Origin: an uncultured Myxococcales bacterium
GTDB lineage: Bacteria; Myxococcota_A; UBA9042; CAIXZC01
NCBI GenBank assembly: GCA_903895725.1
Contig: CAITUV010000048.1
Span: 8,474-72,473 of the forward strand
Length of the DNA stretch: 64,000 bases
Reading direction: 5' to 3'
Shown: in pieces, positions 14,948 through 63,998 of the stretch
Position numbering within the stretch: position 1 is the stretch's first letter
Layout: each line of letters starts with the position of its first letter
Notes under the pieces: generated by a model
Database searches by the model: none
Told to the model about the DNA's origin: nothing
Seen by the model: the letters and a program-made list of their open reading frames with translations, nothing else
Position numbers and translations under genes: made by a program

Positions 14948-15345
14948 CGGTCAGCCGTCTCCAGGTTAGAGCCACAGGCCAGGGCCGCCTCGTCGGGACG
15001 GGAGGCCGAACCGAGACCCCGAGGATACTGCATCTCGAGCACGCTGTGAAGCGCTCTGACGTGGTGTGTCGTCCCGATGGAAATCCTGTCCTGCCGACCC
15101 ACGTGGCGCAACCCGGTCGGAGTTGCTGTGACAGAGACGCCGGGGGTCACCGCCGCAGAGGGCGGGGCCAGCGAGGGAGCCGTCCGCTGGGCACTCGGGG
15201 CACTGAGGGACTGCGCTCGGCACAGGGCAGGTCCCGCAAGCCCGACCGGTCGGTCGAAAAGCGCTTGAACCCCGGCAGTGGATGTGCTTTGATCAACAGG
15301 AGTTGGCGCCCGAGTTACTTTCCCCTTTGCAGCGGAGTGGAACCC

Positions 15346-19094: not shown

Positions 19095-19095
19095 C

Positions 19096-19117
19096 GGGGG
19101 CGGAGCGGGCGGCCCCC
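19096..19117 (+). terminator. Hairpin GGGGGC-(10 nt)-GCCCCC immediately after the stop at 19094.
   Basis: Perfect 6-bp GC stem read from the sequence. No U-tract. Confidence 0.25.
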
Positions 19118-19248
19118 TCGGCTGGCGGGAACGTCCGCACACCGGGCCCTCGGCACGCCGGGCTACACTTTGGAGCCCAGACCGACTAGAATCAATCAGG
19201 CGAGGAACCGGTCCCGGTCCTCGAGCTTCCCGGGGAGAGGAGGTCGGT

Positions 19249-49119: not shown

Positions 49120-49923
49120 ATGTTTCAGCGAAGCGAGCTGCTGCTCGGTCCGACGACCGTGAAGGCACTCTGGGGCACCCGGGTGATTCTGTTCGGCGTC
49201 GGCGGGGTCGGGAGCTGGTGCGCTGAGGCGCTGGTAAGGAGCGGTGTTGGTCACCTGGCGATCGTGGACTCGGACAGCGTCTGTATCACAAACGTGAACC
49301 GGCAGCTCCAGGCGACGCCGGCGACGGTAGGCCGCATCAAGGTGGAGGTGCTGGCCCGACGACTGAGGGAGATAAGCCCCGACGCGGAGATCGTGGTCTT
49401 CCCGATTGCCTATGACGAGAGCACTTCGGACTCGTTCGGACTCGAGCGCTACGACTATGTGCTCGATGCCATCGATTCCCTGAGTCACAAGCTGGGGCTC
49501 ATCCGGAAGGCATTGTCGCTCGGGTGTCGGCTGTACTCGTCCATGGGCGCTTCGGCACGGCTCGACCCGACGAAGGTGAGGGTCGGGTCCCTCTGGAAGA
49601 CCCGAGATTGCCCGCTCGCCATGCGGGTTCGCAAGCGGCTCAGGAAGCACGGAATCACGACTGCTCTCACGGTGGTATACAGCGAAGAGCTGCCGATGGA
49701 GAGCCTGGAAACCTCGGATTGCGGGACTCCTGCCTGCCACTGTCCACGGCGGGCCATCGCTGAATCGGGCGAAGAGGTGGAGGGGCACGAATGGTGCAGC
49801 TCCAAAGCGTACATCAACGGTTCAATCATGCCGGTCGTGGCGACGTTCGGGATGTCCCTGGCGAGTCTCGTGATACGGGATGTGCTGGAGCGCAGCGGCG
49901 GCAGAGAGGGGAAGGGCCCATGA
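49120..49923 (+). CDS. tcdA: tRNA threonylcarbamoyladenosine dehydratase (ThiF/MoeB-family E1-like, TcdA/CsdL)
   Basis: 'ILFGVGGVGSWCAEALVRSGVGHLAIVDSDSVCITNVNRQ'. An alternative GTG start lies at 49090. The track start at 48703 overlaps the minus-strand gene. Confidence 0.8.
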   Translation: MFQRSELLLGPTTVKALWGTRVILFGVGGVGSWCAEALVRSGVGHLAIVDSDSVCITNVNRQLQATPATVGRIKVEVLARRLREISPDAEIVVFPIAYDESTSDSFGLERYDYVLDAIDSLSHKLGLIRKALSLGCRLYSSMGASARLDPTKVRVGSLWKTRDCPLAMRVRKRLRKHGITTALTVVYSEELPMESLETSDCGTPACHCPRRAIAESGEEVEGHEWCSSKAYINGSIMPVVATFGMSLASLVIRDVLERSGGREGKGP

Positions 49924-52088
49924 GTCGGCTTGCTGCGGTTTTGTGCATCGTGGCGGCTCTCGCGATTCCGGCAACGGCGGAGGCTGTGACGATGAGCCTC
50001 GTCAGTGAGAGCCAGCCGTTCCCCGGAATCACGCTGAAGCAGTACAAGACGACCTCGCCCAAGACCAACTGTTGGGCGGTGCTCGTCGACCTGTGCGCCG
50101 ACTACGTCCACGTGGATGCGACGCCGGATCCTTCCGGACCCAAGACCGTGGCGCAGTTCGGACAGGACTCGGGCGTCCAGGTGGCGGTCAACGGGGACTT
50201 CTACAAGTCGCCACCGGCCCACGTATACGGCGCCGCTGTCGGGGGAGGGATTCAGTGGCCGTCGGTCAAGCAGGGCTTTGACCCGAGCTACTCCGGCGAG
50301 TGGTTTTTCATGAAGTACGGCTGGCTCGCATTCGGACACGACCTGGTCGAGCACAACCACACGAAATGGGTCAAGCAGAACGTCGCCGGGCTGACCTCTG
50401 GCTGGGAGCCGACCGACGTGGTGACGTCGATTCCGGCTGGAACGCTGGCGCTGGTCAGCGGGTTCTCCCAGCTTGTGATTGATGGGGAGCCGGTGACCTG
50501 CCCGGACCCGACGGCCAGCAGCTGTTTCCCGGACCGCTCCGACATGCGGGATCGTCACCCTCGCACCGCCATGGGAATCACGGAAGATCGAAAGACCTTC
50601 ATCCTGTTCGTGGTCGACGGTCGGACCGATGTTTCCATCGGCATGTACGGGACCGAGCTGGCCGACGTGATGCACAAGCTGGGGGCGCACCAGGCCTTCA
50701 ACCTGGACGGTGGCGGGTCGAGCCAGCTCTGGGTGAAGGGCAAGGGGACGGTCAACGATGCCAACGGCAACAACAACGGCGGAGGCCTTCGCCCCGTGCT
50801 CAATCATTGGGGCGTTTTTGCAGGGCCCGCGAGCGGGAAGGCCAAGCGACCTGGCCATTGCGTGTCGAGCCCGGCATGCGCCGTGCTGCCTCCGGAAGGC
50901 GGTACGCTGGACGACTCCGGACCGTGTTTTGCTGCGTTTGGGACGCCGGAGTACTGGCGAACCGAGGCTGCTGGCTTCGAGGGGGGCCTGCACTGGACCA
51001 ATGCCTGGAAGACGACGGTCCCCGACAACTGGGCCTGGTGGCAGGTCCACCTGGCCGAGGGGGGTAAGTATCGGGTCGACTACTATGCGGTCCCTGAGTT
51101 CGCCGTGTTCAAGAAGACCCACTACGAGGTAAGGGCGTCGGGAACCTTGACGAAGCTCTCCGTGGATCAGTCGATTGCCGACGGTTGGACCGAGCTGGGG
51201 GAGTTCGACTTCTCGGCAGGCGGGGGGCAATGGGTGTCCGTCTTCGATGACACGCCGGCAACCGTTGCGGATGACCAGCACATCGTGGCGGATGCCATCC
51301 GACTGGTCCGCCTGGATCCGTGGTGTGGGAACGGGCAGTGCGACGGGACCGAGGAGTGCGGCTCGTGCGTCGAGGACTGCGGGGAGTGCCCCGAGCCTTG
51401 CGGCAACAGCGAATGCAAGGAGGGCGAGAGCTGCGAAACGTGCCCCGCCGACTGCGGAGACTGCCCCGAGAGCTGCGGCGACGGGTCGTGTGGGGCGGAG
51501 GAGAGCTGCAGCAGCTGCCCGGCTGATTGCGGGGAGTGCCCGGAAACATGCGGCAACGGGAGCTGCGCCTCGGGGGAGAGCTGCGAGAGCTGCCCCGAGG
51601 ACTGCGGGGAGTGCTCCGGCTCGTGCGGGAACGGTCTGTGCGACGCGTGGGAGAGCTGCGCCACCTGTCCGGCCGAGTGCGGCAACTGTCCCGATACCTG
51701 CGGCGACGGCCTGTGCGACGAGTGGGAGAACTGCGGAACCTGTCCGAAGGATTGCGGCTCCTGCGTTCCGGACGTTCAGGAAGCACGGCCCGAGAGCGAC
51801 ATTCAAAGCGAGCCCGAGCTGGTGCCGGAGACCCTCCCGGAAGCCGAGGTCCTTTGCGCCGGCGATGCCTGCCCCGTGCATGGTGACAGCGCGTCCTTTG
51901 AGGAGCCGTGGGAAGTGGCCCCGTCGGTCGAGCCGGCTCCGGAATCGAATGGCGATTCGGCGGGCAGCTGCAGTGCTGCGGTCCATCGACGCCCAGACAG
52001 CGGACCGGTCGCGCTCCTTGCTCTGGCCATGCTGCTCATCGCGATCATCCTGAGACGAAGGCCTTGCGGCGCTGGTGGAGCGGATTGA
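49920..52088 (+). CDS. Secreted protein with a phosphodiester-glycosidase (NAGPA 'uncovering-enzyme'-like) domain, a 6x25-aa CGxGxC-x-CPxDCGxC repeat array, a Pro/Glu linker, and a MYXO-CTERM-like C-terminal sorting signal
   Basis: ATGA overlap with tcdA. Signal peptide 'MSRLAAVLCIVAALAIPATAEA'. NAGPA-like 'GVQVAVNGDFY...RTAMGITEDRKTFILFVVDGR...AFNLDGGGSSQLWV'. Repeats 'CGNSECKEGESCETCPADCGDCPES'. C-terminal 'GSCSAAVHRRPDSGPVALLALAMLLIAIILRRRP'. Confidence 0.85.
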   Translation: MSRLAAVLCIVAALAIPATAEAVTMSLVSESQPFPGITLKQYKTTSPKTNCWAVLVDLCADYVHVDATPDPSGPKTVAQFGQDSGVQVAVNGDFYKSPPAHVYGAAVGGGIQWPSVKQGFDPSYSGEWFFMKYGWLAFGHDLVEHNHTKWVKQNVAGLTSGWEPTDVVTSIPAGTLALVSGFSQLVIDGEPVTCPDPTASSCFPDRSDMRDRHPRTAMGITEDRKTFILFVVDGRTDVSIGMYGTELADVMHKLGAHQAFNLDGGGSSQLWVKGKGTVNDANGNNNGGGLRPVLNHWGVFAGPASGKAKRPGHCVSSPACAVLPPEGGTLDDSGPCFAAFGTPEYWRTEAAGFEGGLHWTNAWKTTVPDNWAWWQVHLAEGGKYRVDYYAVPEFAVFKKTHYEVRASGTLTKLSVDQSIADGWTELGEFDFSAGGGQWVSVFDDTPATVADDQHIVADAIRLVRLDPWCGNGQCDGTEECGSCVEDCGECPEPCGNSECKEGESCETCPADCGDCPESCGDGSCGAEESCSSCPADCGECPETCGNGSCASGESCESCPEDCGECSGSCGNGLCDAWESCATCPAECGNCPDTCGDGLCDEWENCGTCPKDCGSCVPDVQEARPESDIQSEPELVPETLPEAEVLCAGDACPVHGDSASFEEPWEVAPSVEPAPESNGDSAGSCSAAVHRRPDSGPVALLALAMLLIAIILRRRPCGAGGAD
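51324..51764 (+). repeat. Six tandem 75-bp (25-aa) coding repeats, CG(N/D)GxCxxxExCxxCPxDCGxCPxx
   Basis: Periodicity visible at both DNA and protein level. Confidence 0.7.
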
Positions 52089-52142
52089 CAACGGGCTTGC
52101 GCGTGTGGTTTGCTGGCAGGAAGGTTGACGGTGGAGGTCGGC

Positions 52143-55100
52143 ATGATCGCACGGAAGCACTTCTGGCTCGTTGCTTCGCTCCTGTTTTCTGCCGGATGCG
52201 GCGGCGGGGGAGAGATCATCTCGATCGAGGATGTTGCGCTGGACCAGGCGGGAGAGACTGCGGACGCGGTCATGGCTCCCGAGGTCTCCGAGGCCGCGGC
52301 GGACCTCGTCCCCATCCCGGATGCGACACCCGAAGCAGCAGTCGATGCCACGCTGCCGGACGGCTGGGTCGAGCCCGGCGCGTTTGGAGCCCCGTGCTTT
52401 GGCGGGACCGATTGTGCCTCAGGGCTCTGCATCCGGACGACGGCCGGCATGCAGTGCACGGGGCCGTGCGTCGACGAGTGCCCGCAGGGGTTCAAGTGCG
52501 TTTCGTACGAGGGAGGCGGGCCGGACATCATGTTCGTGTGCGTCGATCCGTTCCTGACCCTGTGCCGTCCCTGCTCGACCAATGCGGACTGCCAGGGCAA
52601 CGAGGATGCGTGGGCGGGGGAGCGGTGTGCGTCCTACGGTGCTGCCGGCAGCTTCTGCTCCATGCCGTGTGCGCAGGTGGACGACTGTCCGGCAGGCTAC
52701 CTCTGCGAGGAGACCGTGGATTCAAGCGGGGCATCGTCGCTCCAGTGCGTGCTGGCCGAGGGCGAGTGCGAATGCCCGCAGTGGTTTGCGGACGAGGGGG
52801 CTTCGACCTCGTGCTTCGTGGAGAACGAGTGGGGAACGTGCTCCGGTACGCGGGCCTGCACGGCAGCGGGGCTGGCGGCGTGCACGGCAGCGGTCCCGGC
52901 CAAGGAGAGCTGCAACGGGCTCGACGATGACTGCGACGGCCAGGACGACGAGGAGACTGCAGGCGGAACCTGCCCCGTCGTCAACGAGCTCGGCACCTGC
53001 CCGGGCACCACGCTCTGCCTGGACGGAACCGAGACCTGCCAGGGCGCTGCCGCGGCCCCGGAGCAGTGCGACGGGTTGGACAACAACTGTAACGGTACCA
53101 AGGACGAGGGGTTCCCCGATGCAGACGGGGACGGGACCGCAGATTGCCTGGAGAACGACAAGGACAACGACCTGGTGCCGGACTACCTCGACAACTGCCC
53201 GTCGGTGGCCAACTCGGAGCAGAAAGACTTCGACCTGGATACCCTGGGCGATGCGTGCGATCCCGACGACGACGGCGACAAGACCGGGGATGCAACGGAT
53301 TGTGCCCCGCTCGACGACAAGGTGTACCCCGGTGCGACCGAGACCTGCGACGGCAAGGACAACGACTGCAACTACGTTGTGGACGAAGGGTTCCCGGATG
53401 CCGACGTCGACGGCTGGAAGGACTGCACCGACCCGGACGACGACAACGACGGCAGCGCGGATGCTGCAGACTGTATGCCGCTTGACGCGGAGGCTCACCC
53501 CGGTGCAGTCGAGACCTGCAATGGCAAGGACGACGACTGCGACTTTGCCATCGACGAGACCTTTCCCGATCTGGATGGCGACGGACAGGCGGACTGCGTG
53601 GACAGCGACGTCGACGGCGACGGTCTCGGCAACGGCGACGACAACTGCCCCCAGGTCGCCAACGCGGATCAGACCGACCTCGACGGCGACCAGGTAGGCG
53701 ATGCCTGCGACCCGGACAAGGACGGCGACGCCATCCCCGAGCTTGCGGACAACTGCCCGCTTACCAAGAACCCGGCCCAGGCCGATACCGACCAGGATGG
53801 ACAGGGCGATGCCTGCGACGATGACGACGACGGCGACGGCTACGGCGACGGCGCCGACAACTGCCCGCTTGCCAAGAACCCGTCCCAGGCCGACCTCGAC
53901 CAGGATGGCGTCGGAGACGCGTGCGAGGGGGATCTGGACGGTGACGGTACTCCGGATTCCCTCGACTGTGCGCCGCTGAACGCCACCGTGCACCCCGGGG
54001 CATTCGAGGCCTGTAACGGCGCGGACGACAACTGCAATGGAACCGTGGACGAGGGGGCACCGGACACGGACTTCGACGGTTTCAAGAACTGTGTCGACCC
54101 GGACGATGATGGGGACGGCGACCCGGATGACGCGGACTGTGCGCCGCTCAACCTTGCGGTGCACCACGCTGCGGTCGAGAGCTGCAACGCCATCGACGAT
54201 GATTGCGACGGCCAGATCGACGAGGGGCTCGGGGCACTTTCGTGCGGGAAGGGCGTGTGCGCTCACAAGATTCCCGCCTGTCTCGACGGCAAGCAGCAGA
54301 CTTGCGATCCATTCCAGGGAATCCAGGAAGAAGTGTGCGACGGCAAGGACAACGATTGCGATGGGTTGACGGACGAGGACCAGGGCAAGCTGACGTGCGG
54401 CCTCGGGACGTGCGTGCACACCGTACCCGCCTGCCAGGAGGGGAAGGACAACGTGTGCGACCCCGCAGCCGGTGCCGTCCAGGAAGTGTGTGACGGCAAG
54501 GACAACGACTGCGATGGGGCGGTGGACGAGGAGCTGGGACAGCTCGCCTGCGGCAAGGGCGTCTGCTTCCATACGGTCAAAGCCTGCATCGGCGGAGAGC
54601 CTCAGCCATGCGAACCGTTCCAGGGAGCTTTGCCCGAAGCCTGTGACGGGCTGGACAACGACTGCGACGGAAGCGTCGACGAGAATCTGGGGGAGACATC
54701 CTGCGGCCTGGGTCCCTGCGAGCACACGGTCCCCTACTGTGCCGGGGGCAAGGTGCAGCAGTGCAACGCGTTCGAGGGCGCTGCCGTCGAGGCCTGCGAC
54801 AGCGTGGACAACGACTGCGACGGGCTGGTCGACGAGGACATGGGGTTTGCGAGCTGCGGTCTGGGCGTCTGCTTCCACATCGTCAAGCTCTGCTCCGGCG
54901 GGGTGCTCCAGGTGTGCGATCCGCTGGAGGGCGCTGCCGGGGAGGCGTGCGACGGCGTGGACAACGACTGCGATGGCATCGCCGATGACGGGTTGGGCGA
55001 CATCACCTGCGGCCTGGGGGAGTGCGTCCACACGGTTCCCGTCTGCAAGGAGGGCAAGCAGAACAGCTGTGATCCGCTCGAGGGGGAATCCCCCGAGGCG

Positions 55101-55955
55101 TGCGACGGCAAGGACAACGATTGCGACGGTCAGACGGACGAGTCCTTCGCCGACCAGGACGGCGACGGCCAGGCAGACTGCGTCGATCTCGACGACGATG
55201 GCGACGCGGATCCGGATGGGACGGACTGTGCACCGCTCGATCCGACCATCGGCTCCAACCAGAAGGAGAAGTGCTTCGACGGCAAGGACAACGACTGCGA
55301 CGGAAGCACCGACGACGATCCGGAGTGCATTCTCAAGAGCTGCGCCGAGCTCCTGGCCTCGAACCCCGCACTGCCGTCGGGGACCTACACGATTGACCCG
55401 GACGGCGGGGGCGGGAAGCCCTCGTTCGCCGCGTGGTGCGAGATGGCGCTGGACGGAGGGGGCTGGACCCTGGTCTGGAAGCACTCCTACTACGAAGTGG
55501 GGGCACCGACGGACACCATGCGCTTCTACAGCACCAGCGCAAAGGAGTGCAAGGACACGACGGCCGGATGGTGCAATGTGCCGGGCAAGCTGTCCGTTGG
55601 CAAGACGCAGCAGCTCGTCATCGCCACCTACCAGGGGACGACCGTTTACGCTTACAAGGGGGACTTGAATCCCAAGATCGACTCGAGCTGGGAAGGCGCC
55701 ATACTCAAGAACGCAACCAGCCTGGTCGACAAGTGCGTCAACAACGTGGGAGTGGCCCCGGAGCCCGAGGTGGGAGGGCATGCGATGCCCGGCATCACGT
55801 TCGACAAGGCGACCCCCAACGACTATGTGTCCAATTGCGATACGGATCGGTACGGAGGGGGCTCGGATTGCCGCTGGGAGAACTGCGGTCTGCCGGGAAA
55901 CATCGCCCCCTCGAGCACTCACGTGCAGATGACCGTGATGATCTACGTGCGCTGA
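52143..55955 (+). CDS. Cys-rich lipoprotein with a thrombospondin type-3 repeat array, seven or so MopE-like CDGKDNDCDG modules, and a C-terminal fibrinogen-related domain (FReD)
   Basis: RBS GGTGGAGG. 'MIARKHFWLVASLLFSAGCGGGG'. TSP3: 'DNCPSVANSEQKDFDLDTLGDACDPDDDGD', 'DNCPQVANADQTDLDGDQVGDACDPDKDGD', 'DNCPLAKNPSQADLDQDGVGDACEGDLDGDG'. FReD: 'CAELLASNPALPSGTYTIDPDGGGGKPSFAAWCEMALDGGGWTLVWKHSY...'. Confidence 0.85.
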   Translation: MIARKHFWLVASLLFSAGCGGGGEIISIEDVALDQAGETADAVMAPEVSEAAADLVPIPDATPEAAVDATLPDGWVEPGAFGAPCFGGTDCASGLCIRTTAGMQCTGPCVDECPQGFKCVSYEGGGPDIMFVCVDPFLTLCRPCSTNADCQGNEDAWAGERCASYGAAGSFCSMPCAQVDDCPAGYLCEETVDSSGASSLQCVLAEGECECPQWFADEGASTSCFVENEWGTCSGTRACTAAGLAACTAAVPAKESCNGLDDDCDGQDDEETAGGTCPVVNELGTCPGTTLCLDGTETCQGAAAAPEQCDGLDNNCNGTKDEGFPDADGDGTADCLENDKDNDLVPDYLDNCPSVANSEQKDFDLDTLGDACDPDDDGDKTGDATDCAPLDDKVYPGATETCDGKDNDCNYVVDEGFPDADVDGWKDCTDPDDDNDGSADAADCMPLDAEAHPGAVETCNGKDDDCDFAIDETFPDLDGDGQADCVDSDVDGDGLGNGDDNCPQVANADQTDLDGDQVGDACDPDKDGDAIPELADNCPLTKNPAQADTDQDGQGDACDDDDDGDGYGDGADNCPLAKNPSQADLDQDGVGDACEGDLDGDGTPDSLDCAPLNATVHPGAFEACNGADDNCNGTVDEGAPDTDFDGFKNCVDPDDDGDGDPDDADCAPLNLAVHHAAVESCNAIDDDCDGQIDEGLGALSCGKGVCAHKIPACLDGKQQTCDPFQGIQEEVCDGKDNDCDGLTDEDQGKLTCGLGTCVHTVPACQEGKDNVCDPAAGAVQEVCDGKDNDCDGAVDEELGQLACGKGVCFHTVKACIGGEPQPCEPFQGALPEACDGLDNDCDGSVDENLGETSCGLGPCEHTVPYCAGGKVQQCNAFEGAAVEACDSVDNDCDGLVDEDMGFASCGLGVCFHIVKLCSGGVLQVCDPLEGAAGEACDGVDNDCDGIADDGLGDITCGLGECVHTVPVCKEGKQNSCDPLEGESPEACDGKDNDCDGQTDESFADQDGDGQADCVDLDDDGDADPDGTDCAPLDPTIGSNQKEKCFDGKDNDCDGSTDDDPECILKSCAELLASNPALPSGTYTIDPDGGGGKPSFAAWCEMALDGGGWTLVWKHSYYEVGAPTDTMRFYSTSAKECKDTTAGWCNVPGKLSVGKTQQLVIATYQGTTVYAYKGDLNPKIDSSWEGAILKNATSLVDKCVNNVGVAPEPEVGGHAMPGITFDKATPNDYVSNCDTDRYGGGSDCRWENCGLPGNIAPSSTHVQMTVMIYVR
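53157..53950 (+). repeat. Thrombospondin type-3-like Ca-binding repeat array (D-x-D-x-D-G-x-x-D-x-C / DNCP-x-x-x-N-x-x-Q-x-D)
   Basis: Motif recognition; see the parent CDS. Confidence 0.7.
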
Positions 55956-55992
55956 GCAGAAGGTGACAGTCTTTCAACCGGGAGATGCCGTC

Positions 55993-58900
55993 ATGACCAC
56001 TCGCAAGCTGTTTCGGATTACGCTCCTGAGCGTTCTCGTTCCGGCCGTCGGATGCAGCACTTCAGGCAACACGGTGGAGAAACCGGAGCCGGATCTCGGC
56101 ATCGAGGTCGTCGACTCCAGCGTCGCTCCGGAAGTCGTACCCCCGGATGCCATGGAAGTCGAGCCCGAGGTGCCTCAGGTCGAGTTGCTCGTTGAGGCCG
56201 TGGAGGAATCGGGTGGCCCGAAGTGCGCACCGGGCGAAGGGTGCTTCCTGGACCCATGCCAGGAGAACGATTCCTGCCAATCGGGCTGGTGCGTGGACCA
56301 CATGGGGGCCGGAGTCTGCACCATTGCCTGCGAGGAGGAGTGCCCTCCCGGCTGGTCGTGCCAGCAGATCGGCTCGGGTCCCGACGTGAACTACGTCTGC
56401 ATCTCGAACCACGCAAACCTTTGCCGGCCTTGCGGCAGCGGGGACAACTGCAAGAGCCCGGGGGGTGCGGAGGACGTGTGCGTGGACTACGGTGCGGAGG
56501 GCAGCTTCTGCGGGGGAACCTGCAACAGCGACGAGGATTGCCCCTGGGGTTTCTCGTGCATCGAAGCCTCCACGGTGGATGGAATCGAAGTGAAGCAATG
56601 CGTGGCCGATGCGGGAGTCTGCCCGTGTACCGAAAAGTCCGTGAGCCTGGCATTGTGGACCCCTTGCCAGAGCAGCAACGAGCACGGCGTGTGCCAGGGG
56701 CAGAGGGTGTGTACCGAGGCCGGGCTGTCCGCGTGTGACGCGGCTGTGCCCGCACAGGAATCGTGCAACGGCATCGACGATGATTGCGACGGGGAGGTCG
56801 ACGAGCCGCAGCAGGTGGGCGGAGAGTATATTTCGCTCTGCTCGGACGGGAATTCGTGCACGAAGGATCAGTGCGCGGGCGTTGACGGCTGCACTAACAC
56901 GGCGCTCAACGAGGGCGAGTGCATGGACGGAGATGCGTGCACCGTGGGGGACCATTGCCAGGAAGGGACGTGCGTGGGGCTCCCTGTCGCCTGCGATGAC
57001 GGTGACCCCTGCACCGACGACCTGTGCGACGGACTGGGAGGCTGCAAGACCGAGTTCAACACCGCTGCGTGCGACGACGGAGATGCGTGCACGGTCGCGG
57101 ATGGCTGCGTCGAGGGGGTGTGCGGCGGCGTTGCCGTCCCTTGTGAGTGCCAGGCGGATTCCGATTGCCTGTCACTCGAGGATGGCGATGTCTGCAACGG
57201 GACACTGTTCTGCGACAAGGGGAAGTGGCCGTATCTTTGTGCGGTCGAGCCGGGAACCGAAATCACGTGCCCGCTGCCGCCGGCCGGGAAGGATGCGTTC
57301 TGCCAGGCCACTGCGTGCGACAGCGGGACCGGGAAGTGCTCAATCGTCCCGGCTCACGAGGGTTTCGCCTGTGATGACGGGGATGCCTGCACCATCGGTG
57401 AGCACTGCGCCTCCGGAACCTGCGGCCAGGGGGCCGGGCTCGGATGCCAGGACGACAATCCCTGCACGGACGACTCGTGCGAGCCTGGCGTCGGGTGCAT
57501 CCACAAGGCGAACGCTGCACCGTGCAGCGACGGGAACGTGTGCACGACGGACGACATGTGCTCGGCCACTGTATGCGTCGGCGGAGCGCTTCTGGCCTGC
57601 GACGACGGCTCGGTGTGCACCGGCACGGAGACCTGCGATCCTTCCGTCGGCTGCAAAGCGGGCCTCTCCCTCGTGTGCGATGATCAGGACGCCTGCAACG
57701 GAAAGGAGAGCTGCCACCCGGCCAAGGGGTGCCTGGCCGGAATCCCTCCGGTTTGTGACGACTTGAACCCATGTACCGACGACTCGTGCGACCCTCTGTC
57801 GGGGTGCGTTCACAAGGGGAATACCGCCGCCTGTGACGACGGCAACGCCTGCACCACGGGGGACAAGTGCTCGGCAGGAAGCTGCCTCGCCGGTGAGGCG
57901 ACAAGCTGCAACGACGGCAATCTCTGCACGACCGACACCTGCGTGCCGGCCAAGGGATGCATGTTCCTGCTCAACACGGTCCCGTGCGACGACGGCGACT
58001 TGTGCACGACCGGGGACCATTGCTCCCTGGGGGCCTGCATCTCGTCGGGGAAGCTGACCTGCAACGACGGGAATCCGTGCACGGCCGACTCGTGCACCCC
58101 CGGAGCCGGCTGCCAGTTCGTGCCCACCTCGGCCGCGTGCGACGACGGCAATGCGTGCACCTCGGGCGATGCCTGCACCAAGGGCCAGTGCCTCGGGCCG
58201 GACGTGGTGAGCTGCGACGACGACAATGTCTGCACGAAGGACTTCTGCTCCCCGTTGACCGGCTGCGGGCACAGCCCTCTGGCCGGGCCGTGTGAGGACG
58301 GGACCGAGTGCAGCGTCGGGGATACCTGCCAGAACGGAGTGTGCGTGGCCGGGCCACCGCTCGCCTGCGACGATGGGAACCAGTGCACCGTCGACGTCTG
58401 CGACCCCAAGCTGGGGTGCGTGTACAAGGCATTCGTGGGAGGCTGCGACGACGGAAACCCGTGCACCCTGGTGGATGTGTGTCAGGGCACGGTCTGCGCA
58501 CCCGGGTTGCCCAAGGACTGCAACGACGACAACCAGTGCACTACGGACACCTGCGACCCGGCCAAGCTGTGCGTGAACAGCCCGAAGGCCGGCAACTGCG
58601 ACGACAGCAACGCGTGTACGACGGGAGAGGCCTGCCAGGCGGGCGTCTGCAAGGGGGGCACCCCCCTGGACTGCAACGATGGGAAGCCGTGCACGACCGA
58701 CTCGTGCGACCCCCTCCTGGGGTGCGGACACATCGACACTGTCCCGTGCTGCGGGAATGCCAAGCTCGAGGCGGGCGAGGAGTGCGACGACGGAAACATC
58801 GTGGGCGGGGACGGATGCGAGCCTGACTGCAAGCAGTTCACCCCGGTCAGCGTGACGTTCAACAACTGTGGGCAGACGGGCCCGTCGGGGCCAAACCAGA

Positions 58901-59682
58901 GCCAGTGCAACAGCGCCTACTCGGGCAACCCGCTCCTCAACGGCAAGGTGACCGTCACTGCCGGCATCCAGTTCTGGACCGTGCCGTACACCGGGACCTA
59001 CCGGATCGAGGCTTTCGGAGCCAGGGGCGGCTGCAACGGCGGCAACGGTGCGCGGATGCGGGGCGATTTCGCCCTGACTCAGGGCACCCAGCTCAAGATT
59101 CTGGTCGGACAGCAGGGATCGGCTGCCCCCGCAAGCGTGGGCAACGGAGGTGGCGGTGGGACGTACGTGGCGAAGGCCGACAATGCCCCCATCATCGTTG
59201 CGGGCGGCGGTGGAGGAACGGGGCACGATTGCTACGCGGACTACGACATGAGCGGAGTCACCGGCATCGATGGAATCAAGGGCAAGTACGAGACCGCCGG
59301 GCTGGGCGGAGTGAACGGACAGGGCGGCGGATACGGGCTGACCACCCAGGGCGTTCCCAACGCCGGCGGTGGCGGCGGCTTCTACGGGGACGGCGGGAGC
59401 ATCGGACATGCCAATGGCGGGAAGGCCTTCGTGAACGGAGGCGTGGGCGGCTCCACGACCGGAGGATTCGGCGGCGGCGGCGGCTCGGACCAGTTCATCT
59501 ACGGCTGCGGCGCATCGCCACACGGCGGCAGCGGCGGCGGAGGCTACTCGGGCGGCGGCGGCGGCGCAACGAACTGCAACGGCCCGGGCGGTGGCGGCGG
59601 CTCCTACAACAACGGTGCCAACCCGTCCAACTCAGCTGGCGCCAATTCGGGGCACGGCAGCGTGACCATCAATCGCATCTGA
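55993..59682 (+). CDS. Cys-rich lipoprotein with about 13 Dictyostelium-type (CTDC) repeats, one Myxococcus cysteine-rich repeat, and a C-terminal ALK/LTK-like glycine-rich (GlyR/TNF-like) domain
   Basis: 'MTTRKLFRITLLSVLVPAVGCSTSG'. CTDC: 'CDDGNPCTDDSC', 'CSDGNVCTTDDMC', 'CNDGNLCTTDTC', 'CDDGNQCTVDVC'. Myxococcus cysteine-rich repeat: 'CCGNAKLEAGEECDDGNIVGGDGCEPDC'. GlyR: 'FNNCGQTGPSGPNQSQCNSAYSGN...GIQFWTVPYTGTYRIEAFGARGG...LKILVGQQG...GGGGGTYVAK...IIVAGGGGG...GGFGGGGGS...GGGGYSGGGGG'. Confidence 0.85.
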   Translation: MTTRKLFRITLLSVLVPAVGCSTSGNTVEKPEPDLGIEVVDSSVAPEVVPPDAMEVEPEVPQVELLVEAVEESGGPKCAPGEGCFLDPCQENDSCQSGWCVDHMGAGVCTIACEEECPPGWSCQQIGSGPDVNYVCISNHANLCRPCGSGDNCKSPGGAEDVCVDYGAEGSFCGGTCNSDEDCPWGFSCIEASTVDGIEVKQCVADAGVCPCTEKSVSLALWTPCQSSNEHGVCQGQRVCTEAGLSACDAAVPAQESCNGIDDDCDGEVDEPQQVGGEYISLCSDGNSCTKDQCAGVDGCTNTALNEGECMDGDACTVGDHCQEGTCVGLPVACDDGDPCTDDLCDGLGGCKTEFNTAACDDGDACTVADGCVEGVCGGVAVPCECQADSDCLSLEDGDVCNGTLFCDKGKWPYLCAVEPGTEITCPLPPAGKDAFCQATACDSGTGKCSIVPAHEGFACDDGDACTIGEHCASGTCGQGAGLGCQDDNPCTDDSCEPGVGCIHKANAAPCSDGNVCTTDDMCSATVCVGGALLACDDGSVCTGTETCDPSVGCKAGLSLVCDDQDACNGKESCHPAKGCLAGIPPVCDDLNPCTDDSCDPLSGCVHKGNTAACDDGNACTTGDKCSAGSCLAGEATSCNDGNLCTTDTCVPAKGCMFLLNTVPCDDGDLCTTGDHCSLGACISSGKLTCNDGNPCTADSCTPGAGCQFVPTSAACDDGNACTSGDACTKGQCLGPDVVSCDDDNVCTKDFCSPLTGCGHSPLAGPCEDGTECSVGDTCQNGVCVAGPPLACDDGNQCTVDVCDPKLGCVYKAFVGGCDDGNPCTLVDVCQGTVCAPGLPKDCNDDNQCTTDTCDPAKLCVNSPKAGNCDDSNACTTGEACQAGVCKGGTPLDCNDGKPCTTDSCDPLLGCGHIDTVPCCGNAKLEAGEECDDGNIVGGDGCEPDCKQFTPVSVTFNNCGQTGPSGPNQSQCNSAYSGNPLLNGKVTVTAGIQFWTVPYTGTYRIEAFGARGGCNGGNGARMRGDFALTQGTQLKILVGQQGSAAPASVGNGGGGGTYVAKADNAPIIVAGGGGGTGHDCYADYDMSGVTGIDGIKGKYETAGLGGVNGQGGGYGLTTQGVPNAGGGGGFYGDGGSIGHANGGKAFVNGGVGGSTTGGFGGGGGSDQFIYGCGASPHGGSGGGGYSGGGGGATNCNGPGGGGGSYNNGANPSNSAGANSGHGSVTINRI
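56839..58735 (+). repeat. Array of about 13 Dicty_CTDC-like repeats (C-x-D-x-N-x-C-T-x-D-x-C, about 48 aa period)
   Basis: See the parent CDS. Confidence 0.7.
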
Positions 59683-59687
59683 GAAGA

Positions 59688-59705
59688 GTCCCGCGATCAC
59701 GGGAC
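59688..59705. terminator. Hairpin GTCCCG-cgatca-CGGGAC between convergent gene ends. It overlaps the stop codon of the minus-strand gene.
   Basis: Perfect 6-bp stem. Confidence 0.2.
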
Positions 59706-62700
59706 GTAGCAGAGGGTTCCTTCGGGCACGTATCCAAGCGCCTGCGCTTCGCTCCACTCCTGCTGGCTGGTGGACACGAAGTGGTCGGAGGCTGCAACAC
59801 TGTATAGGCGGCGCAGCTCCTTGGATGCCTCGGGAATCGGGTTGGCCGCGCAATAGCCCAGCACCCCCTCGTCCTGGTAGGCGGGAGCGCCTTCGTTGCC
59901 GTCCAGGCTCTGGAGGTGATCGAAGCAGCCGCTGCAGTAGAGCTGATGCAGCGCCACGAGCCCCGGGGCCGGTCCGTCGAACAGTGTGAAGTGCTGTCCC
60001 TCGAAGGCGTACCCGGCAGGCGCAGTCGTGTCGGACTTGAACATGTGGTCCGAGTCGCCGCCCTTGTTGCCGTAGAAGCGATAGATGGGGTGCGTCCCGG
60101 GCAGACATGGCAGCTTCTCGTGCTGGCACCCGGCTGCACCGGCGCAGGTATCCATGGTGCACGGATCGCCGTCGTCGCAGTCAGCGTCCTTTCCACATCC
60201 TGGCGCCCCGTTGGCGAACACGCGCACGCGGGCAACCACGCGCACGTTCCCATCGGTATCGGAGGCGGCAATTTCCAGCAGGTGAGGGCAGGGGGACCAG
60301 TCTCCGAGCGGCACGTCCGCCTCGAACCCCACCTGGTTGCACATCGTGTACCCGGGGTAGACCTGGCAGACATCGGGCCGCTGGGTATTGAGCGGAAGCG
60401 AGGCGACCTGCACACCGTCCCTGCGCAGTGCCAGCGAAGCGATTCCCTTGTTGTCCAACGCCCAGCCGGTCACGTGCAGCGTCCCGGAGACGGCCGCATC
60501 CATCTTGGGCGCGTCCAGGGCACCGAACGGGGGCAGCTTGGCATCAAGTGCAGCGGCCTCGGACGCAATCGTTCCGAACGCACCCAGGATCAGGTAGGCC
60601 CTGGCCTTGACCTTGCCGAACGCAGGCAGAGCGAACGAGAACTGCGAGCGAACGTTGTTGAACACCCCGAGCTTCTGCCAGCCCTGGAAGCCGGTCAGCC
60701 GGTTCTCATAGTAGATGCCTACGCCGTAGTCCTTGGACGCGTTCTGCAGCGCAACCCAGCCGCCGGGGCTGGTGAAGTTCTTGAAGTAGAAGCCATCGTT
60801 GCCCGGCCCGTCGACGATGATCTGCTGGCCGTTGGAATCGAGCAGCACCTTGAGGTCCGCCGTTCCACCGGCTCCGTAGACGGCATAGAGCGTTGGGAAC
60901 TCCTGTCCCGTGGCCGGGTGGTCCAGGTCGGACAGGTTTTCCACCGTCATCTTCATCTCGACCACGTGGGTGGCCACGAATCGGAGCCGCTGGGTGTAGG
61001 AGACGTCGCTCTTCATCGCCTTCTTGCCCGGGTCCGAGCAGCCGCCATTCGCACAGGTCGGCTCTTTCCAGTCGGGGTTCCAGAAGAGCGGGCGTACGCC
61101 GGCTTCCAGGATGCCGGGGGCGACGTTGATCCACTCGGTGCCGGAGCCGATGTTGCACTCGTTGCCCCCCTGGACGGGATCCCACCCGAGGTAGGTGATG
61201 CTGGACGGGCACGCCGCCCCCGGATTCGATTGGCAAGTGGCATTCCAGGCGCACCCCTGCATCGCACGAAGCGGATCATAAAGGGCGATCTGGACTTCGC
61301 GGCCGGTATCGTTGGCGTCGATGGTGTTGGTCGTGTTCATTCCCGGCTTCCCCTTGGCCAGGCCGAAGAAGACGATCGTGGAACCCCATTCCCGCCGCGT
61401 GCCCACCTTGATGTAGGAAGTCGGGTCGTGGACATAGTCATCGGTGAAGCCGCCCTCCTTGACCGTTTCGGCAGGGCCCGCTGGCGACAGTGCCCCAAGG
61501 GGATCTTCGGACACGGGCTCGGGCTTGGGAACGTCGATGCAGCCTGCCGCAAAGATGCAGGCTCCTTCCTGGCACACGTAGTCGGGAGGGCAGGCGCCGC
61601 ACGAGCCTGCGCACCCGTCATCTCCGCACTGCTTGCCTCCGCACTGGGGAACGCAGGGGGCCTGCTTGCACGTGCCGCCCTCGCAATCCAGGCCCGGTGG
61701 ACATGCGCCGCAGAAGCCTCCGCAGCCGTCGTCACCGCACTGCTTCCCCTCACACAGCGGTGTGCAGGTGTCCGCAGCCAGGTCGGCCGCCGCATCGGGT
61801 GACTGGCTGTCCTCAACGTCCGCTGGCAGTGTATCCGTGATGAGGGTGTCGGTCGGTCCTGGCGTTTCATCCTTGGGGCTGCCGTCCGGCCCGGCGTCGG
61901 GCTCGGGGGCGTCAAGCAGCTTGATATCGCCAGGGGCGTCCGCAGCCGCAGAGTCGAACGACGTGTTGACCTGATCCTTCGGTTCGTATGAATCATCCGG
62001 AACCATGGCCTCGGGCTCTGGCTGCCGGTCTCCGCTCCCATCCGGGACGTGGGAGGGCACGTCGGCGCCGGGGAAGAGCAGGACATCGGCATCCGCCGAG
62101 CTGCCCCCGGACACGCTTCCGCAGGCCGCAAGGAACAGGGCCGCGAGGAGAAGGCCAAATCCCCCTCTCCAGTGACCGCAGCCTGTCCCGGCTTGTGCCC
62201 CCCGACCACAGCGGGCCCGACTTCCCGAGCCTGGACCACCAATGCCCGAACCTCCTGCCACAGGAGCACGAAAGCGACGAATCACGCCGAGCATTGCCCC
62301 CCCGAGGAGGAGCAGGATCCAAACCGACGCGCCCTCGGAGGGCCCAGGTGCCGCCGAGCAGCCGCCGCTCTTCTTGCCAGAGCCGCCGTCGCCGCTGTGC
62401 CCATCGGCTGGAACCGTGAACCATCCGTCGCCTGCGCCCCCGATTTCCGCGGTGCCATCCTGATTCTCGAGTTCCGACTTGCCGGCCATGCCATCTGCCG
62501 GGAGCACCTCCCCCGCGGCGGAATCCAGCGCCGGGATTTCCGGACCCGGTCCGGAATCCGGGGCCGGCCCCGGCAGGTCGGCGACAAGGTCGGGCTGGCC
62601 CGCACCATCCGGGGCCTCGACGTCCTGCGGCATCCAGTCCTCCTCCTCTACGACATCCGGCGGAGGGCAGGTCGAGACGCACTCTCCCCAGCTCCCGTCG

Positions 62701-63998
62701 GTGCAGAGCTGCAGGCCGTTGGCGCAATCACCTCCTGGTGGAATGCAGGCCTGAATCTGACCGTTGGGGCAAGCGGGGCACCCCTCGTCGACCTGCCCGT
62801 CACAGTCGTTATCCTGCCCGTCGCAGACCTCGTCCGGTGCGGGACCGCACGTGCCGCAGGCGTTGAGCAGCCCCTCGTCGACCTTTCCGTCGCAGTCGTT
62901 GTCCTGTCCGTCGCAGACCTCGTCCGGTGGAGGACCGCACTTGCCGCAGGCGTTGAGCAGCCCCTCGTCGACCTGCCCGTCACAGTCGTTGTCTTTTCCG
63001 TCGCAGACCTCGTCCGGTGGAGGACCGCACTTACCGCAGGCGTTGACCAATCCCTCGTCGACCTGCCCGTCGCAGTCGTTGTCCTGTCCGTCGCAGACCT
63101 CGTCCGGCGCCGGACCGCACGTGCCGCAGGCGTTGAACAATCCCTCGTCGGCCTGCCCGTTGCAGTTGTCGTCCGCTGCGTTGCATACCTCCTGCGCGCC
63201 GGGCTTCACCTGCGGGTTGGCATCGTTGCAGTCACCGCCCGTGGTCTTGGTGAACGGAGCGAGCGGCTCGTAGAGGCACTTGCCCGTGTCGCTGCCTCCG
63301 GCACCGTCGCCGTCTGCATCCTTGTAGTAGGGCGTGCACCAGGTCCCCTGCTTGGGCCATCCGGCGAAGTCGAACACCCCGGCCAGGTCAGCCAGTCCCT
63401 TCTGGCCGACCTGCTTCTCGGTGAATTCCCCGGAGTTCAGGAAGTTGTCGCGCACCGTGCTGCGCAACGTACCCTGGGCCAGCATTCCCATGTACGTTGC
63501 AAATCCTTCGTCGTCCGGCTTTCGAAACAGGATCTGCCAGTAGAGCTCGGTCACGAACTGATTGTCGGAGACCTTGGACATGGCTTCCGGTGAGTTGATG
63601 AATTCGTCGCGGGCCTGCGCCCTGGTGCCGCCTCCGTTCAGGAAGTCCTGGTAGTTCTTCACACCACCGGCATCCGGGTCCCGATGGAGGTAGTGCTTGT
63701 AGAGGAAGGCAATGTACCCGTCGTTGGAAAGGACGTCCTTGGCCTCGGGACTCTCCAGGATGTCATCTCTCACCGCGGAGGGCGGATTGCCGGCAAGCAT
63801 GTCTCCGTAGCTCTGCTTTCCGCTCTTGTCGGGAAGCCTCCCCATGACGTAGCGGTACGCCGCATTGAGGTACGAACCCTTGAACCGGAACTTGATGGCC
63901 CAGGAGGCGGTGAGCTGGATGTACTGCGTCCCGTACTCGAAGCTGTGTGCGATGTCGGTGCTCTCGTGCCACTCGTTCCAGGTTTCGACCGCGGTCAC
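59697..63998 (-). CDS. Very large multidomain secreted protein (5' partial; N-terminus lies beyond the window end). It contains DUF4214-like repeats, four near-identical MopE-like CDGQDNDCDG modules, an internal MYXO-CTERM-like segment followed by a lipoprotein-signal-like segment, CxGKQCGDDGCGG repeats, a large unassigned domain, one CTDC repeat, and two C-terminal DUF5648-like (YRFY..GDH.F) repeats.
   Basis: A single open frame of 1433+ codons on the minus strand. 'FLYKHYLHRDPDAGGVKNYQDFL', 'ELYWQILFRKPDDEGFATYMGML' (DUF4214-like). 'EVCDGQDNDCDGQVDEGL' x4. 'GGCSAAPGPSEGASVWILLLLGGAMLGVIRRFR' then 'GFGLLLAALFLAACGS'. 'PIYRFYGNKGGDSDHMFKS', 'LRRLYSVAASDHFVST'. It may actually be two genes; see findings. 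Confidence 0.75.
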   Translation of the reverse strand: MTAVETWNEWHESTDIAHSFEYGTQYIQLTASWAIKFRFKGSYLNAAYRYVMGRLPDKSGKQSYGDMLAGNPPSAVRDDILESPEAKDVLSNDGYIAFLYKHYLHRDPDAGGVKNYQDFLNGGGTRAQARDEFINSPEAMSKVSDNQFVTELYWQILFRKPDDEGFATYMGMLAQGTLRSTVRDNFLNSGEFTEKQVGQKGLADLAGVFDFAGWPKQGTWCTPYYKDADGDGAGGSDTGKCLYEPLAPFTKTTGGDCNDANPQVKPGAQEVCNAADDNCNGQADEGLFNACGTCGPAPDEVCDGQDNDCDGQVDEGLVNACGKCGPPPDEVCDGKDNDCDGQVDEGLLNACGKCGPPPDEVCDGQDNDCDGKVDEGLLNACGTCGPAPDEVCDGQDNDCDGQVDEGCPACPNGQIQACIPPGGDCANGLQLCTDGSWGECVSTCPPPDVVEEEDWMPQDVEAPDGAGQPDLVADLPGPAPDSGPGPEIPALDSAAGEVLPADGMAGKSELENQDGTAEIGGAGDGWFTVPADGHSGDGGSGKKSGGCSAAPGPSEGASVWILLLLGGAMLGVIRRFRAPVAGGSGIGGPGSGSRARCGRGAQAGTGCGHWRGGFGLLLAALFLAACGSVSGGSSADADVLLFPGADVPSHVPDGSGDRQPEPEAMVPDDSYEPKDQVNTSFDSAAADAPGDIKLLDAPEPDAGPDGSPKDETPGPTDTLITDTLPADVEDSQSPDAAADLAADTCTPLCEGKQCGDDGCGGFCGACPPGLDCEGGTCKQAPCVPQCGGKQCGDDGCAGSCGACPPDYVCQEGACIFAAGCIDVPKPEPVSEDPLGALSPAGPAETVKEGGFTDDYVHDPTSYIKVGTRREWGSTIVFFGLAKGKPGMNTTNTIDANDTGREVQIALYDPLRAMQGCAWNATCQSNPGAACPSSITYLGWDPVQGGNECNIGSGTEWINVAPGILEAGVRPLFWNPDWKEPTCANGGCSDPGKKAMKSDVSYTQRLRFVATHVVEMKMTVENLSDLDHPATGQEFPTLYAVYGAGGTADLKVLLDSNGQQIIVDGPGNDGFYFKNFTSPGGWVALQNASKDYGVGIYYENRLTGFQGWQKLGVFNNVRSQFSFALPAFGKVKARAYLILGAFGTIASEAAALDAKLPPFGALDAPKMDAAVSGTLHVTGWALDNKGIASLALRRDGVQVASLPLNTQRPDVCQVYPGYTMCNQVGFEADVPLGDWSPCPHLLEIAASDTDGNVRVVARVRVFANGAPGCGKDADCDDGDPCTMDTCAGAAGCQHEKLPCLPGTHPIYRFYGNKGGDSDHMFKSDTTAPAGYAFEGQHFTLFDGPAPGLVALHQLYCSGCFDHLQSLDGNEGAPAYQDEGVLGYCAANPIPEASKELRRLYSVAASDHFVSTSQQEWSEAQALGYVPEGTLCYVP
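62781..63150 (-). repeat. Near-perfect 90-bp tandem repeat x4.1 encoding the 30-aa unit 'LNACG(T/K)CGP(A/P)PDEVCDG(Q/K)DNDCDG(Q/K)VDEG'
   Basis: Units begin at 62781, 62871, 62961 and 63051 (plus strand) with >90% identity. Read directly from the sequence. Confidence 0.85.

Follow-up and report, generated by a model that had tools for sequence, protein, structure and literature searches.

Dicty_CTDC repeats as the probable stalk of a predicted bacterial surface lipoprotein with an ALK-receptor-like domain

Introduction

Four-cysteine repeats of the Pfam family Dicty_CTDC (PF00526) are known from the Dictyostelia, where exported proteins such as EcmA, EcmB, PsiA, and PsiF/DicA consist largely of tandem copies, described in Dictyostelium as uniform repeats of 24 aa (PMC4406040). 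Several of the Dictyostelium proteins, including ecmA, ecmB, and others, are listed as matrix proteins, and among Amoebozoa the domain is also found in Physarum (PMC4931340, Table 4). In myxobacteria, the closest described system is the surface protein TraA of Myxococcus xanthus, which is composed of a PA14 head that is polymorphic across relatives, Cys-rich repeats of the TIGR04201 family, and a MYXO-CTERM tag; its Cys-rich tandem repeats were proposed to form a rigid stalk for the binding domain (PMC3325183). The same study noted that the Pfam00526 repeats of Dictyostelium PsiA/PsiF resemble myxobacterial Cys-rich repeats (Pathak et al., 2012; PMC3325183). TG-type domains, which bind ligands in the ALK/LTK receptors, also stand at the distal tip of long phage fibers, as in gp24 of phage Pam3 and gp38 of phage S16, where they function in receptor recognition (PMC9608196).

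The protein described here combines features of these systems. It contains the four-Cys unit of the Dictyostelia proteins, CxDxNxCTxDxCxxxxGC, likewise in tandem and in a protein with a predicted export signal. It differs from them in being bacterial, in carrying a putative lipoprotein anchor, and in joining the array to a bacterial N-terminal module, a TIGR02232 repeat, and a TG head rather than PA14. As in TraA, a Cys-rich repeat array would present a binding head that varies among relatives. The polarity is reversed, however, with a putative N-terminal lipid anchor and a C-terminal head, and both the head fold (TG instead of PA14) and the repeat family differ; no PA14, TIGR04201, or MYXO-CTERM match was found in the focal protein at E<=1 in Pfam and NCBIfam. 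The repeats most likely represent the stiff stalk of a bacterial surface lipoprotein with an ALK-receptor-like binding domain.

The focal gene and its neighborhood

The analyzed DNA (the window) is a 64,000-nt stretch of contig CAITUV010000048.1 from an uncultured Myxococcales bacterium. The features at the 5' side of the focal gene are as follows.

52110..55955, + strand: upstream paralogue with the same lipoprotein signal and N-module
55980..55984, + strand: Shine-Dalgarno-like GGGAG, 8 nt 5' of the ATG, read from the sequence
55993..59682, + strand: focal gene, 1229 aa plus stop, with 100% identical database twins P0001/P0121, each 1229 aa
55993..56055, + strand: putative lipoprotein signal peptide, lipobox ..PAVG/C with the Cys at aa 31, read from the sequence
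56218..56832, + strand: N-terminal Cys-rich module of ~200 aa (aa 86-290), conserved in relatives

The mechanical open reading frame starts at GTG 55963, from which all amino acid numbers are counted here; numbers in the real protein are lower by 10. An identical copy of the gene was called on 8 metagenome contigs. The putative lipobox (..LLSVLVPAVG/C) reads as imperfect, with an atypical Pro at position -4. The N-termini of the relatives are all lipobox-like, with clear, canonical lipoboxes such as LAFAC/SS, LLAAC/SN, and LLVGC/DQ; lipidation of the focal protein is putative. Cysteine makes up 11% of the protein, and the open reading frame holds 137 Cys in total, an even number remaining after subtraction of the lipobox Cys.

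The N-module ends in a MopE-like CNGxDDDCDGxVDE motif (nt 56764-56805). It is kept in 103 of the 124 family members and is common to five proteins of the window, the focal protein and four other giant lipoproteins. Searches of the module against Pfam gave nothing beyond a sub-threshold MopE match, and no relative was found among PDB sequences. It shares 37% identity (E 4e-35) with the N-terminus of the upstream paralogue, whose stalk is different, being composed of MopE together with TSP type-3 repeats, and whose head is of the fibrinogen-like GGGWT type. The two genes are separated by 37 nt, no terminator-like site was found between them, and they are probably co-transcribed.

The focal gene is chromosomal, located amid nuo, his, and purH genes and not in a prophage. 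Eukaryotic contamination was rejected, given the GC content of the window (66%), its nuo, his-operon, and purH genes, the Shine-Dalgarno-like site, and the putative lipobox. A role in anti-phage defense was likewise discarded, with no PADLOC family matched at E<=0.01. Neighboring genes encode proteins with carbohydrate-active domains (NAGPA with Golvesin_C, DUF5010/GH99-like, and CBM6/CBM35 with a beta-helix), next to which a matrix role would fit equally well.

Anatomy and identity of the CTDC repeat array

56839..57141, + strand: CTDC block 1, units 1-4 (A, B, A, B), aa 293-393, by unit spacing and PF00526
57142..57369, + strand: 76-aa Cys-rich insert (10 Cys) splitting the array, aa 394-469
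57370..58746, + strand: CTDC block 2, units 5-22, aa 470-928, by unit spacing and PF00526
58747..58833, + strand: one myxo_disulf_rpt (TIGR02232) joining stalk and head, aa 929-957

A total of 22 four-Cys units were delimited by Cys spacing at nt 56839-58746, including 10 of type A, 10 of type B, and two hybrids, each with exactly four Cys. The Cys spacing is 0, 6, 11, 17 in the canonical type A (26 aa), 0, 6, 12, 17 in the variant type B (25 aa), and 0, 6, 12, 18 in the hybrids. A and B units strictly alternate as a 51-aa di-repeat; block 2 runs B, A, B, the two hybrids, and then an A/B alternation that ends in A. The insert between the blocks matches no Pfam family but is conserved in the consensus of a 45-sequence family alignment. 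A sequence-only reading of this DNA had counted thirteen repeats at 56839-58735: the start coincides exactly with unit 1, the end falls within the last unit, and the count is too low. Two of the repeat examples that it quoted occur verbatim, while 'CDDGNPCTDDSC' does not.

The same reading had assigned the repeats to Dicty_CTDC, followed by one Myxococcus-type repeat, and both profile searches bear this out, with matches far above threshold. PF00526 matched the whole protein in 10 stretches with 153.2 bits (E 1.4e-45; gathering threshold 27 bits), and TIGR02232 matched once, at aa 929-957, with 32 bits (E 7.7e-8; cut-off 20.8 bits), a region that includes the EECDDGN motif at aa 939. The repeats are therefore members of the Dicty_CTDC family, as judged by these profiles, rather than a loose Cys pattern. 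A regular expression for the unit found 22 copies in the region, whereas 1000 composition-preserving shuffles yielded 0.03 copies on average and never more than one.

Such a likeness to Dictyostelium could also arise by convergence, if the units were a generic small disulfide hairpin and any four-Cys repeat would match the model. The units are only ~25 aa long, four Cys and a few Asp, Asn, or Gly contribute much of the score, there is no solved structure for a fold comparison, and type B and hybrid units match PF00526 weakly (10 of the 12, best E 6.5e-4). However, all 10 type A units match when searched alone, a single 26-aa unit reaching E 3.2e-10; apart from the Cys, D3, T8, D10, and G17 vary little or not at all; and the other Cys-rich repeats in the window (MopE, TSP3, and TIGR02232) are each picked up by the model of their own family, whereas PF00526 does not match them. 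Convergence is accordingly considered distinctly improbable.

No tandem repeat with a period of 75 or 153 nt was detected in the repeat DNA by TRF, which excludes a recent expansion at the DNA level. The CTDC units are thus old repeats that have diverged at the protein level.

Stalk model and C-terminal head

58834..59679, + strand: TNF-like + polyglycine 'TG' head, aa 958-1239 (282 aa), homologue of the ALK/LTK ligand-binding domain

The AlphaFold2 model of aa 590-960 shows a regular array of hairpins, in which each A unit forms a long beta-hairpin and each B unit a short one, with a pLDDT of 89.5 and a pTM of 0.51, a low value that is expected of an extended rod. When the model was compared with solved structures, the sole, weak match was the heavy chain of the Entamoeba histolytica Gal/GalNAc lectin (9gjf_H, E 1.8e-4), a surface adhesin that likewise has an extended Cys-rich region; with a TM-score of only 0.14 and an identity of 17%, this match does not indicate a shared fold.

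The Cys content also raises the alternative of a metal-binding or redox-buffering protein, metallothionein-like or MopE-like, to which the sub-threshold MopE motif, named 'putative metal-binding', and weak, chance-level Metallothionein matches on one unit could be added. The Metallothionein match has an E-value of 0.095 and covers that single unit, and the export signal, the regular four-Cys periodicity, and the confident beta-hairpin model are typical of disulfide-bonded extracellular repeats. A metal-related role is therefore hardly credible.

The head was modeled with high confidence (pLDDT 93.8, pTM 0.93). In a Foldseek search against the PDB, the best 19 matches were all human ALK/LTK (E ~1e-14, TM-score 0.63-0.72, identity 28-32%), and phmmer also detected human ALK (7mzy and others, E 3.4e-15). 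The Pfam model of the family, PF12810 (ALK_LTK_GRD), gave 20.2 bits (E 6.7e-4), just under its gathering threshold of 24.5 bits, and many close relatives have a precomputed PF12810 match. The head is homologous to the ALK/LTK ligand-binding domain by sequence and predicted fold. Unlike ALK/LTK, the focal protein has no kinase, transmembrane helix, or EGF-like domain. To our knowledge, ALKAL cytokines are absent from bacteria. Nothing explicit on bacterial homologues of the ALK domain was found in the literature. The fold is frequent among phage virion and tail proteins, many of which match the focal head model, and the position of the TG-type domain at the distal end of a putative long stalk is analogous to that in phage tail-fiber tips. 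In contrast to the trimeric coiled or beta-helical shafts of phage fibers, the stalk here would be built of disulfide-rich repeats.

Taken together, the protein is probably a modular, secreted, lipid-anchored cell-surface protein in which a CTDC stalk presents a binding head. The lipoprotein signal would fix the N-terminus to a membrane, followed by the conserved 200-aa Cys-rich N-module. Each of the 22 CTDC units, arranged in 51-aa A+B pairs, would form a small disulfide-braced beta-hairpin, and the hairpins may jointly build a long, stiff, and protease-resistant stalk, in keeping with the model proposed for TraA (PMC3325183). At the stalk tip, one Myxococcus-type Cys repeat would lead to the TG domain, a domain type that serves for ligand binding in ALK/LTK receptors and for receptor binding at the tips of phage tail fibers. 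The repeats would serve as a spacer that keeps the binding head off the cell and would themselves be no signaling or developmental element.

Family, distribution, and evolution

The profile of the A+B di-repeat matched at least 20,070 clusters (50% identity) at E<=1e-3 and 4,365 clusters at E<=1e-30 among the 1.84 billion representatives searched. The di-repeat is a mass-produced bacterial module. The relatives are labeled Myxococcales or Deltaproteobacteria, and the clusters of the largest repeat carriers bear the single label 'Myxococcales bacterium'. The best 80 related genomic loci all come from uncultured metagenome-assembled genomes (MAGs), aquatic (lake or marine) where the source is traceable, and include no cultured fruiting myxobacterium. 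The genomes of close relatives encode many paralogues each.

Across the family, A and B units occur in about equal numbers, with 9-17 pairs in relatives of ~1,000-1,600 aa that have the N-module and up to 28 pairs in larger relatives that do not. Several mutually unrelated classes were distinguished among the C-terminal tails, the major one being Gly-rich, although the classes were defined by single-linkage clustering and the glycine-rich group may pool unrelated low-complexity sequences; the others include Gly_rich_2, beta-helix, vWA-like, fibrinogen-like, and further types. The focal head type was detected by phmmer in only 28 of the 124 relatives. Anchor and stalk are retained among the relatives, and the head is exchanged, which suggests a set of diversified surface binders, e.g., with prey, particles, polysaccharide, or other cells as targets of adhesion.

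Alternatively, the protein may be a structural component of an extracellular matrix like Dictyostelium EcmA/EcmB, with the repeats cross-linking or binding polysaccharide in a biofilm or sheath and the head as an accessory. This reading draws on the listing of the Dictyostelium proteins as matrix proteins (PMC4931340, Table 4), the adjacent NAGPA + Golvesin_C, DUF5010/GH99-like, and CBM6/CBM35 + beta-helix genes, and the remark of Pathak et al. that extracellular matrices typically contain Cys-rich proteins (PMC3325183). It is possible but rather unlikely, as the putative lipobox points to membrane tethering over free secretion, the constant anchor and stalk with a variable head resemble a display scaffold, and no carbohydrate-binding module was found by Pfam inside the focal protein.

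The sequence-only reading had gone further and proposed a module pool shared by social amoebae and fruiting myxobacteria and linked to their multicellular fruiting bodies. The match to a Dictyostelium-named Pfam model is genuine, the labels of the relatives are Myxococcales or Deltaproteobacteria, and a similar parallel between TraA and PsiA/PsiF was drawn earlier; the resemblance itself had been raised in 2012 (Pathak et al., PMC3325183). The link to fruiting is not borne out. The module is spread over at least 20,070 clusters of proteins, every close relative belongs to an uncultured MAG that encodes many paralogues and is aquatic where traceable, and there is no sign that the source organism fruits. 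The repeat is also present in Physarum, which is non-aggregative. Moreover, the layout differs, with alternating units of 26 and 25 aa against the uniform 24 aa of Dictyostelium (PMC4406040). A pool specific to fruiting organisms is thus very improbable.

A designed Dictyostelium-like query of 96 aa matched nine short proteins, none of them a named Dictyostelium protein. One of the nine lies on a eukaryote-like contig and adjoins a RING-finger gene. A phylogeny built from units as short as 25 aa would hold little signal.

A transfer of the repeat between bacteria and amoebae, in either direction, is a plausible hypothesis. In a broader and doubtful scenario, an aquatic, uncultured Myxococcota-like lineage would have multiplied the chassis of lipid anchor, N-module, and A/B stalk to dozens of paralogues in each genome, which bear interchangeable heads and form a polymorphic surface-receptor repertoire. 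Two modules known mainly from eukaryotes, the matrix repeat of Dictyostelium and the ligand-binding domain of ALK/LTK, would then have their main reservoir in bacteria, which may also have donated them by gene transfer.

Implications

The find is mostly ordinary, a protein of a known kind, because the module abounds in uncultured myxobacteria-like bacteria. The label 'Dictyostelium repeat' used by Pfam misleads annotation, since by the number of protein clusters the family is mainly a bacterial stalk module, and its natural bacterial unit is the 51-aa A+B pair, of which Pfam catches one half well. For biology, the family is a compact example, from a little-known group of bacteria, of an architecture that displays a swappable head on an anchor and stalk that stay constant, and the ALK/LTK ligand-binding fold emerges as a binding module widespread among prokaryotes and viruses. 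Neither the annotation nor the biology points upset current understanding, and the function of the protein as a presenter of surface binding heads is putative.

The CTDC repeat array and its gene

The stretch 56839–58735, in which the sequence-only reading had placed 13 Dictyostelium-type CTDC repeats, lies within a single long ORF (55963..59682, +). The true start of the gene is the ATG at 55993, because a GGGAG motif is found 8 nt 5' of it, database proteins of identical sequence have a length of 1229 aa, and the same gene is called on eight metagenome contigs from stratified-lake samples. Amino acid numbering here begins from the GTG at 55963. The repeats themselves are real, but their number is 22 rather than 13, all four-Cys units (aa 293–928; nt 56839–58746), and one of the examples first quoted is absent verbatim from the sequence. 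A regular expression for the unit recovered 22 copies in the repeat region against ~0.03 in composition-preserving shuffles, and the repeats are therefore genuine and far above chance level. Profile searches confirmed both proposed family memberships: Pfam Dicty_CTDC matched at E 1.4e-45 (153 bits, cut-off 27 bits), and the Myxococcus-type repeat TIGR02232 at aa 929–957 (E 7.7e-8, above threshold). The units fall into the following types.

Four-Cys units of the array (Cys positions counted from the first Cys as 0)
Type A (canonical): 10 units; Cys 0, 6, 11, 17; 25–27 aa, typically 26; consensus CxDGNPCTxDxCDPxxGC
Type B (variant): 10 units; Cys 0, 6, 12, 17; 24–25 aa; consensus CDDGxACTxGDxCxxGVC
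Hybrid: 2 units; Cys 0, 6, 12, 18; 26 aa; no consensus given

Each of the ten type A units matches PF00526 on its own (best E 3.2e-10), and 10 of the 12 B and hybrid units match weakly (best E 6.5e-4). Units A and B alternate strictly along the array, so that the real repeat period is the 51-aa A+B pair. The array is split after unit 4 by a 76-aa insert with 10 Cys (aa 394–469; nt 57142–57369, +), which had no match in a Pfam search and is kept in the family consensus. The insert also occurs in P0011 and P0044, two larger relatives without the conserved Cys-rich N-terminal module (N-module). Tandem Repeats Finder detected no 75- or 153-nt periodicity in the repeat DNA, indicating that the array is ancient and not recently expanded.

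Predicted anchor, stalk, and head

The protein begins with a lipoprotein-type signal (..PAVG|C) and a Pro/Glu/Val-rich linker, followed by the ~200-aa N-module (aa 86–290), for which no relative was found in Pfam or PDB except a MopE-like motif at its end. The last 282 aa (58834–59679, +) form a TNF-like plus polyglycine (TG) head that shares homology with the domain through which human ALK/LTK bind ligand. This head matches the extracellular ligand-binding region of ALK/LTK by phmmer (E 3.4e-15), and its AlphaFold2 model, built with 52 homologues (pLDDT 93.8, pTM 0.93), has human ALK/LTK TG domains as all 19 of its best PDB matches (E ~1e-14, TM 0.63–0.72, 28–32% identity); PF12810, the Pfam model for the domain, scores slightly under threshold. 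The head family is widespread, with named matches in Gracilibacteria and Alphaproteobacteria and some from corals and a brachiopod; among other matches are proteins with PF18962 (T9SS sorting) or PF07963 (pilin-like N-terminal) domains. The fold is also common in phage virion proteins and occurs in giant viruses.

In the AlphaFold2 model of part of the stalk (aa 590–960, 45-sequence alignment, pLDDT 89.5), the secondary structure is strictly periodic, with a long beta-hairpin per A unit and a short one per B unit; the pTM of 0.51 is in line with an elongated object. Foldseek against PDB found no convincing relative of this model; its best match was the Gal/GalNAc lectin of Entamoeba, in the Cys-rich region (E 1.8e-4, TM 0.14). 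The disulfide connectivity and length of the stalk are inferred.

The reading with the best support is that of a surface protein, lipid-anchored, in which a CTDC spacer presents a TG binding head. The lipid anchor would hold the protein at the cell surface, and the array may act as a stiff, disulfide-braced spacer presenting the head; that the protein is lipidated, exposed at the surface, disulfide-bonded, and able to bind is in each case an inference. The same stalk-presents-head logic was suggested for Myxococcus TraA, whose Cys-rich repeats may form a rigid stalk that carries a PA14 head (PMC3325183); in the present protein the polarity is opposite, and repeats and head belong to other families.

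Genomic neighborhood

The region is chromosomal, carrying nuo, his-operon, and purH genes, and contains five giant lipoproteins with the N-module (8–11% Cys), three of which, those other than the CTDC-repeat lipoprotein and its upstream paralogue, have several tandem copies of it.

N-module lipoproteins and carbohydrate-active neighbors
283–3102 (+): secreted, carbohydrate-active GH141-like beta-helix protein with CBM6/CBM35 and FG-GAP
3335–8614 (+): N-module lipoprotein
8616–13661 (+): N-module lipoprotein
19066–24651 (+): N-module lipoprotein
49791–52088 (+): secreted, carbohydrate-active NAGPA phosphodiester glycosidase with Golvesin_C
52110–55955 (+): upstream paralogue with 13 MopE motifs, five thrombospondin type-3 repeats, and a fibrinogen-like YCDxxxxGGGW C-terminal domain
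55993–59682 (+): the CTDC-repeat lipoprotein

The paralogue directly upstream begins with the same kind of signal and an N-module 37% identical to that of the CTDC protein (E 4e-35). Its stalk is of the MopE/TSP3 type, and its fibrinogen-like GGGWT domain gives this anchor a second eukaryote-like head for binding. The carbohydrate-active proteins flanking the lipoprotein genes hint at a role linked to polysaccharide or matrix, and lend some support to the main rival reading, a structural matrix role like that of Dictyostelium EcmA/EcmB; the anchored, head-presenting protein remains the better-supported reading.

Single CTDC-type units were observed in three other proteins, at 16555–16608 (+), 14435–14485 (-), and 60126–60179 (-), so the unit is also used singly in this genome; the carriers include an FGE-sulfatase-domain protein (15046–18195) and the downstream DUF4214/DUF5648 protein. 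Separately, ORF 59697–63998 has a MYXO-CTERM-like sorting tag, GGCSAAPG...WILLLLGGAMLGVIRRFR (TIGR03901, E 4.9e-4), at mid-length, ~62366–62120 (-), followed ~40 aa later by a lipoprotein-signal-like LLLAALFLAAC|GS, in frame and with no stop between. This ORF, called in its database copy as one 1745-aa gene, may give two proteins or be a fusion; a regular expression for the tag-then-signal arrangement found no instance in 80 related loci.

Family distribution and evolution

The whole-protein search gave >4,255 matches at E<=1e-5 among 8,000 candidates scored, and precomputed PF00526 annotation was present on all of the top 120. Among 124 relatives, all have lipobox-like N-termini and 103 the N-module, with roughly equal numbers of A and B units: 9–17 A+B pairs in relatives of ~1,000–1,600 aa with the N-module and <=28 in larger ones without it. 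The exact head was detected by phmmer in only 28 of the 124; tails form several classes, with a Gly-rich one as the major class besides Gly_rich_2, beta-helix, vWA-like, fibrinogen-like, and further ones. Diversity in the family may arise through exchange of heads, and sometimes stalks, on an unchanging anchor.

Searched exhaustively, the A+B profile matched 20,070 clusters at E<=1e-3; the stricter limit of E<=1e-30 left 4,365. Among the matches are proteins as long as 7,241 aa, with as many as 81 matched stretches. The 80 best loci in GTDB genomes, ~17 of them in one MAG, were without exception found in MAGs, whose labels are Myxococcales, Deltaproteobacteria, or Myxococcota or else evidently wrong; at least two adjoining N-module genes occur in 13 of the 80, some with non-CTDC stalks, as is also seen in the window. 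Eight loci (L054, L056, L058, L066, L068, L069, L077, L078) hold typical members in bins named Klebsiella pneumoniae, Enterobacteriaceae, or Phycisphaerae, labels that probably reflect errors of binning or taxonomy rather than a real wider distribution.

While the family assignment stands, the proposed evolutionary story, a module pool shared with social amoebae and linked to fruiting multicellularity, is not supported, on several grounds. Uncultured bacteria, most of them aquatic and not known to fruit, carry the module in very large numbers; it occurs in Physarum as well as dictyostelids (PMC4931340) and is annotated on bacterial teneurin-like proteins (bioRxiv 10.1101/2025.11.11.687626). 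Dictyostelium repeats are uniform and 24 aa long (PMC4406040), in contrast to the 26/25-aa A/B alternation of the bacterial protein. The likeness of Pfam00526 repeats to myxobacterial Cys-rich repeats had, moreover, already been noted (Pathak et al., 2012; PMC3325183). Given single-unit E-values of 1e-10, homology of bacterial and Amoebozoa CTDC repeats is plausible, and with it some ancient transfer between the two; the far greater bacterial diversity hints that the repeat may be of bacterial origin. This protein adds a new, so far unstudied member to domain families already known; its architecture is recurrent but undescribed.
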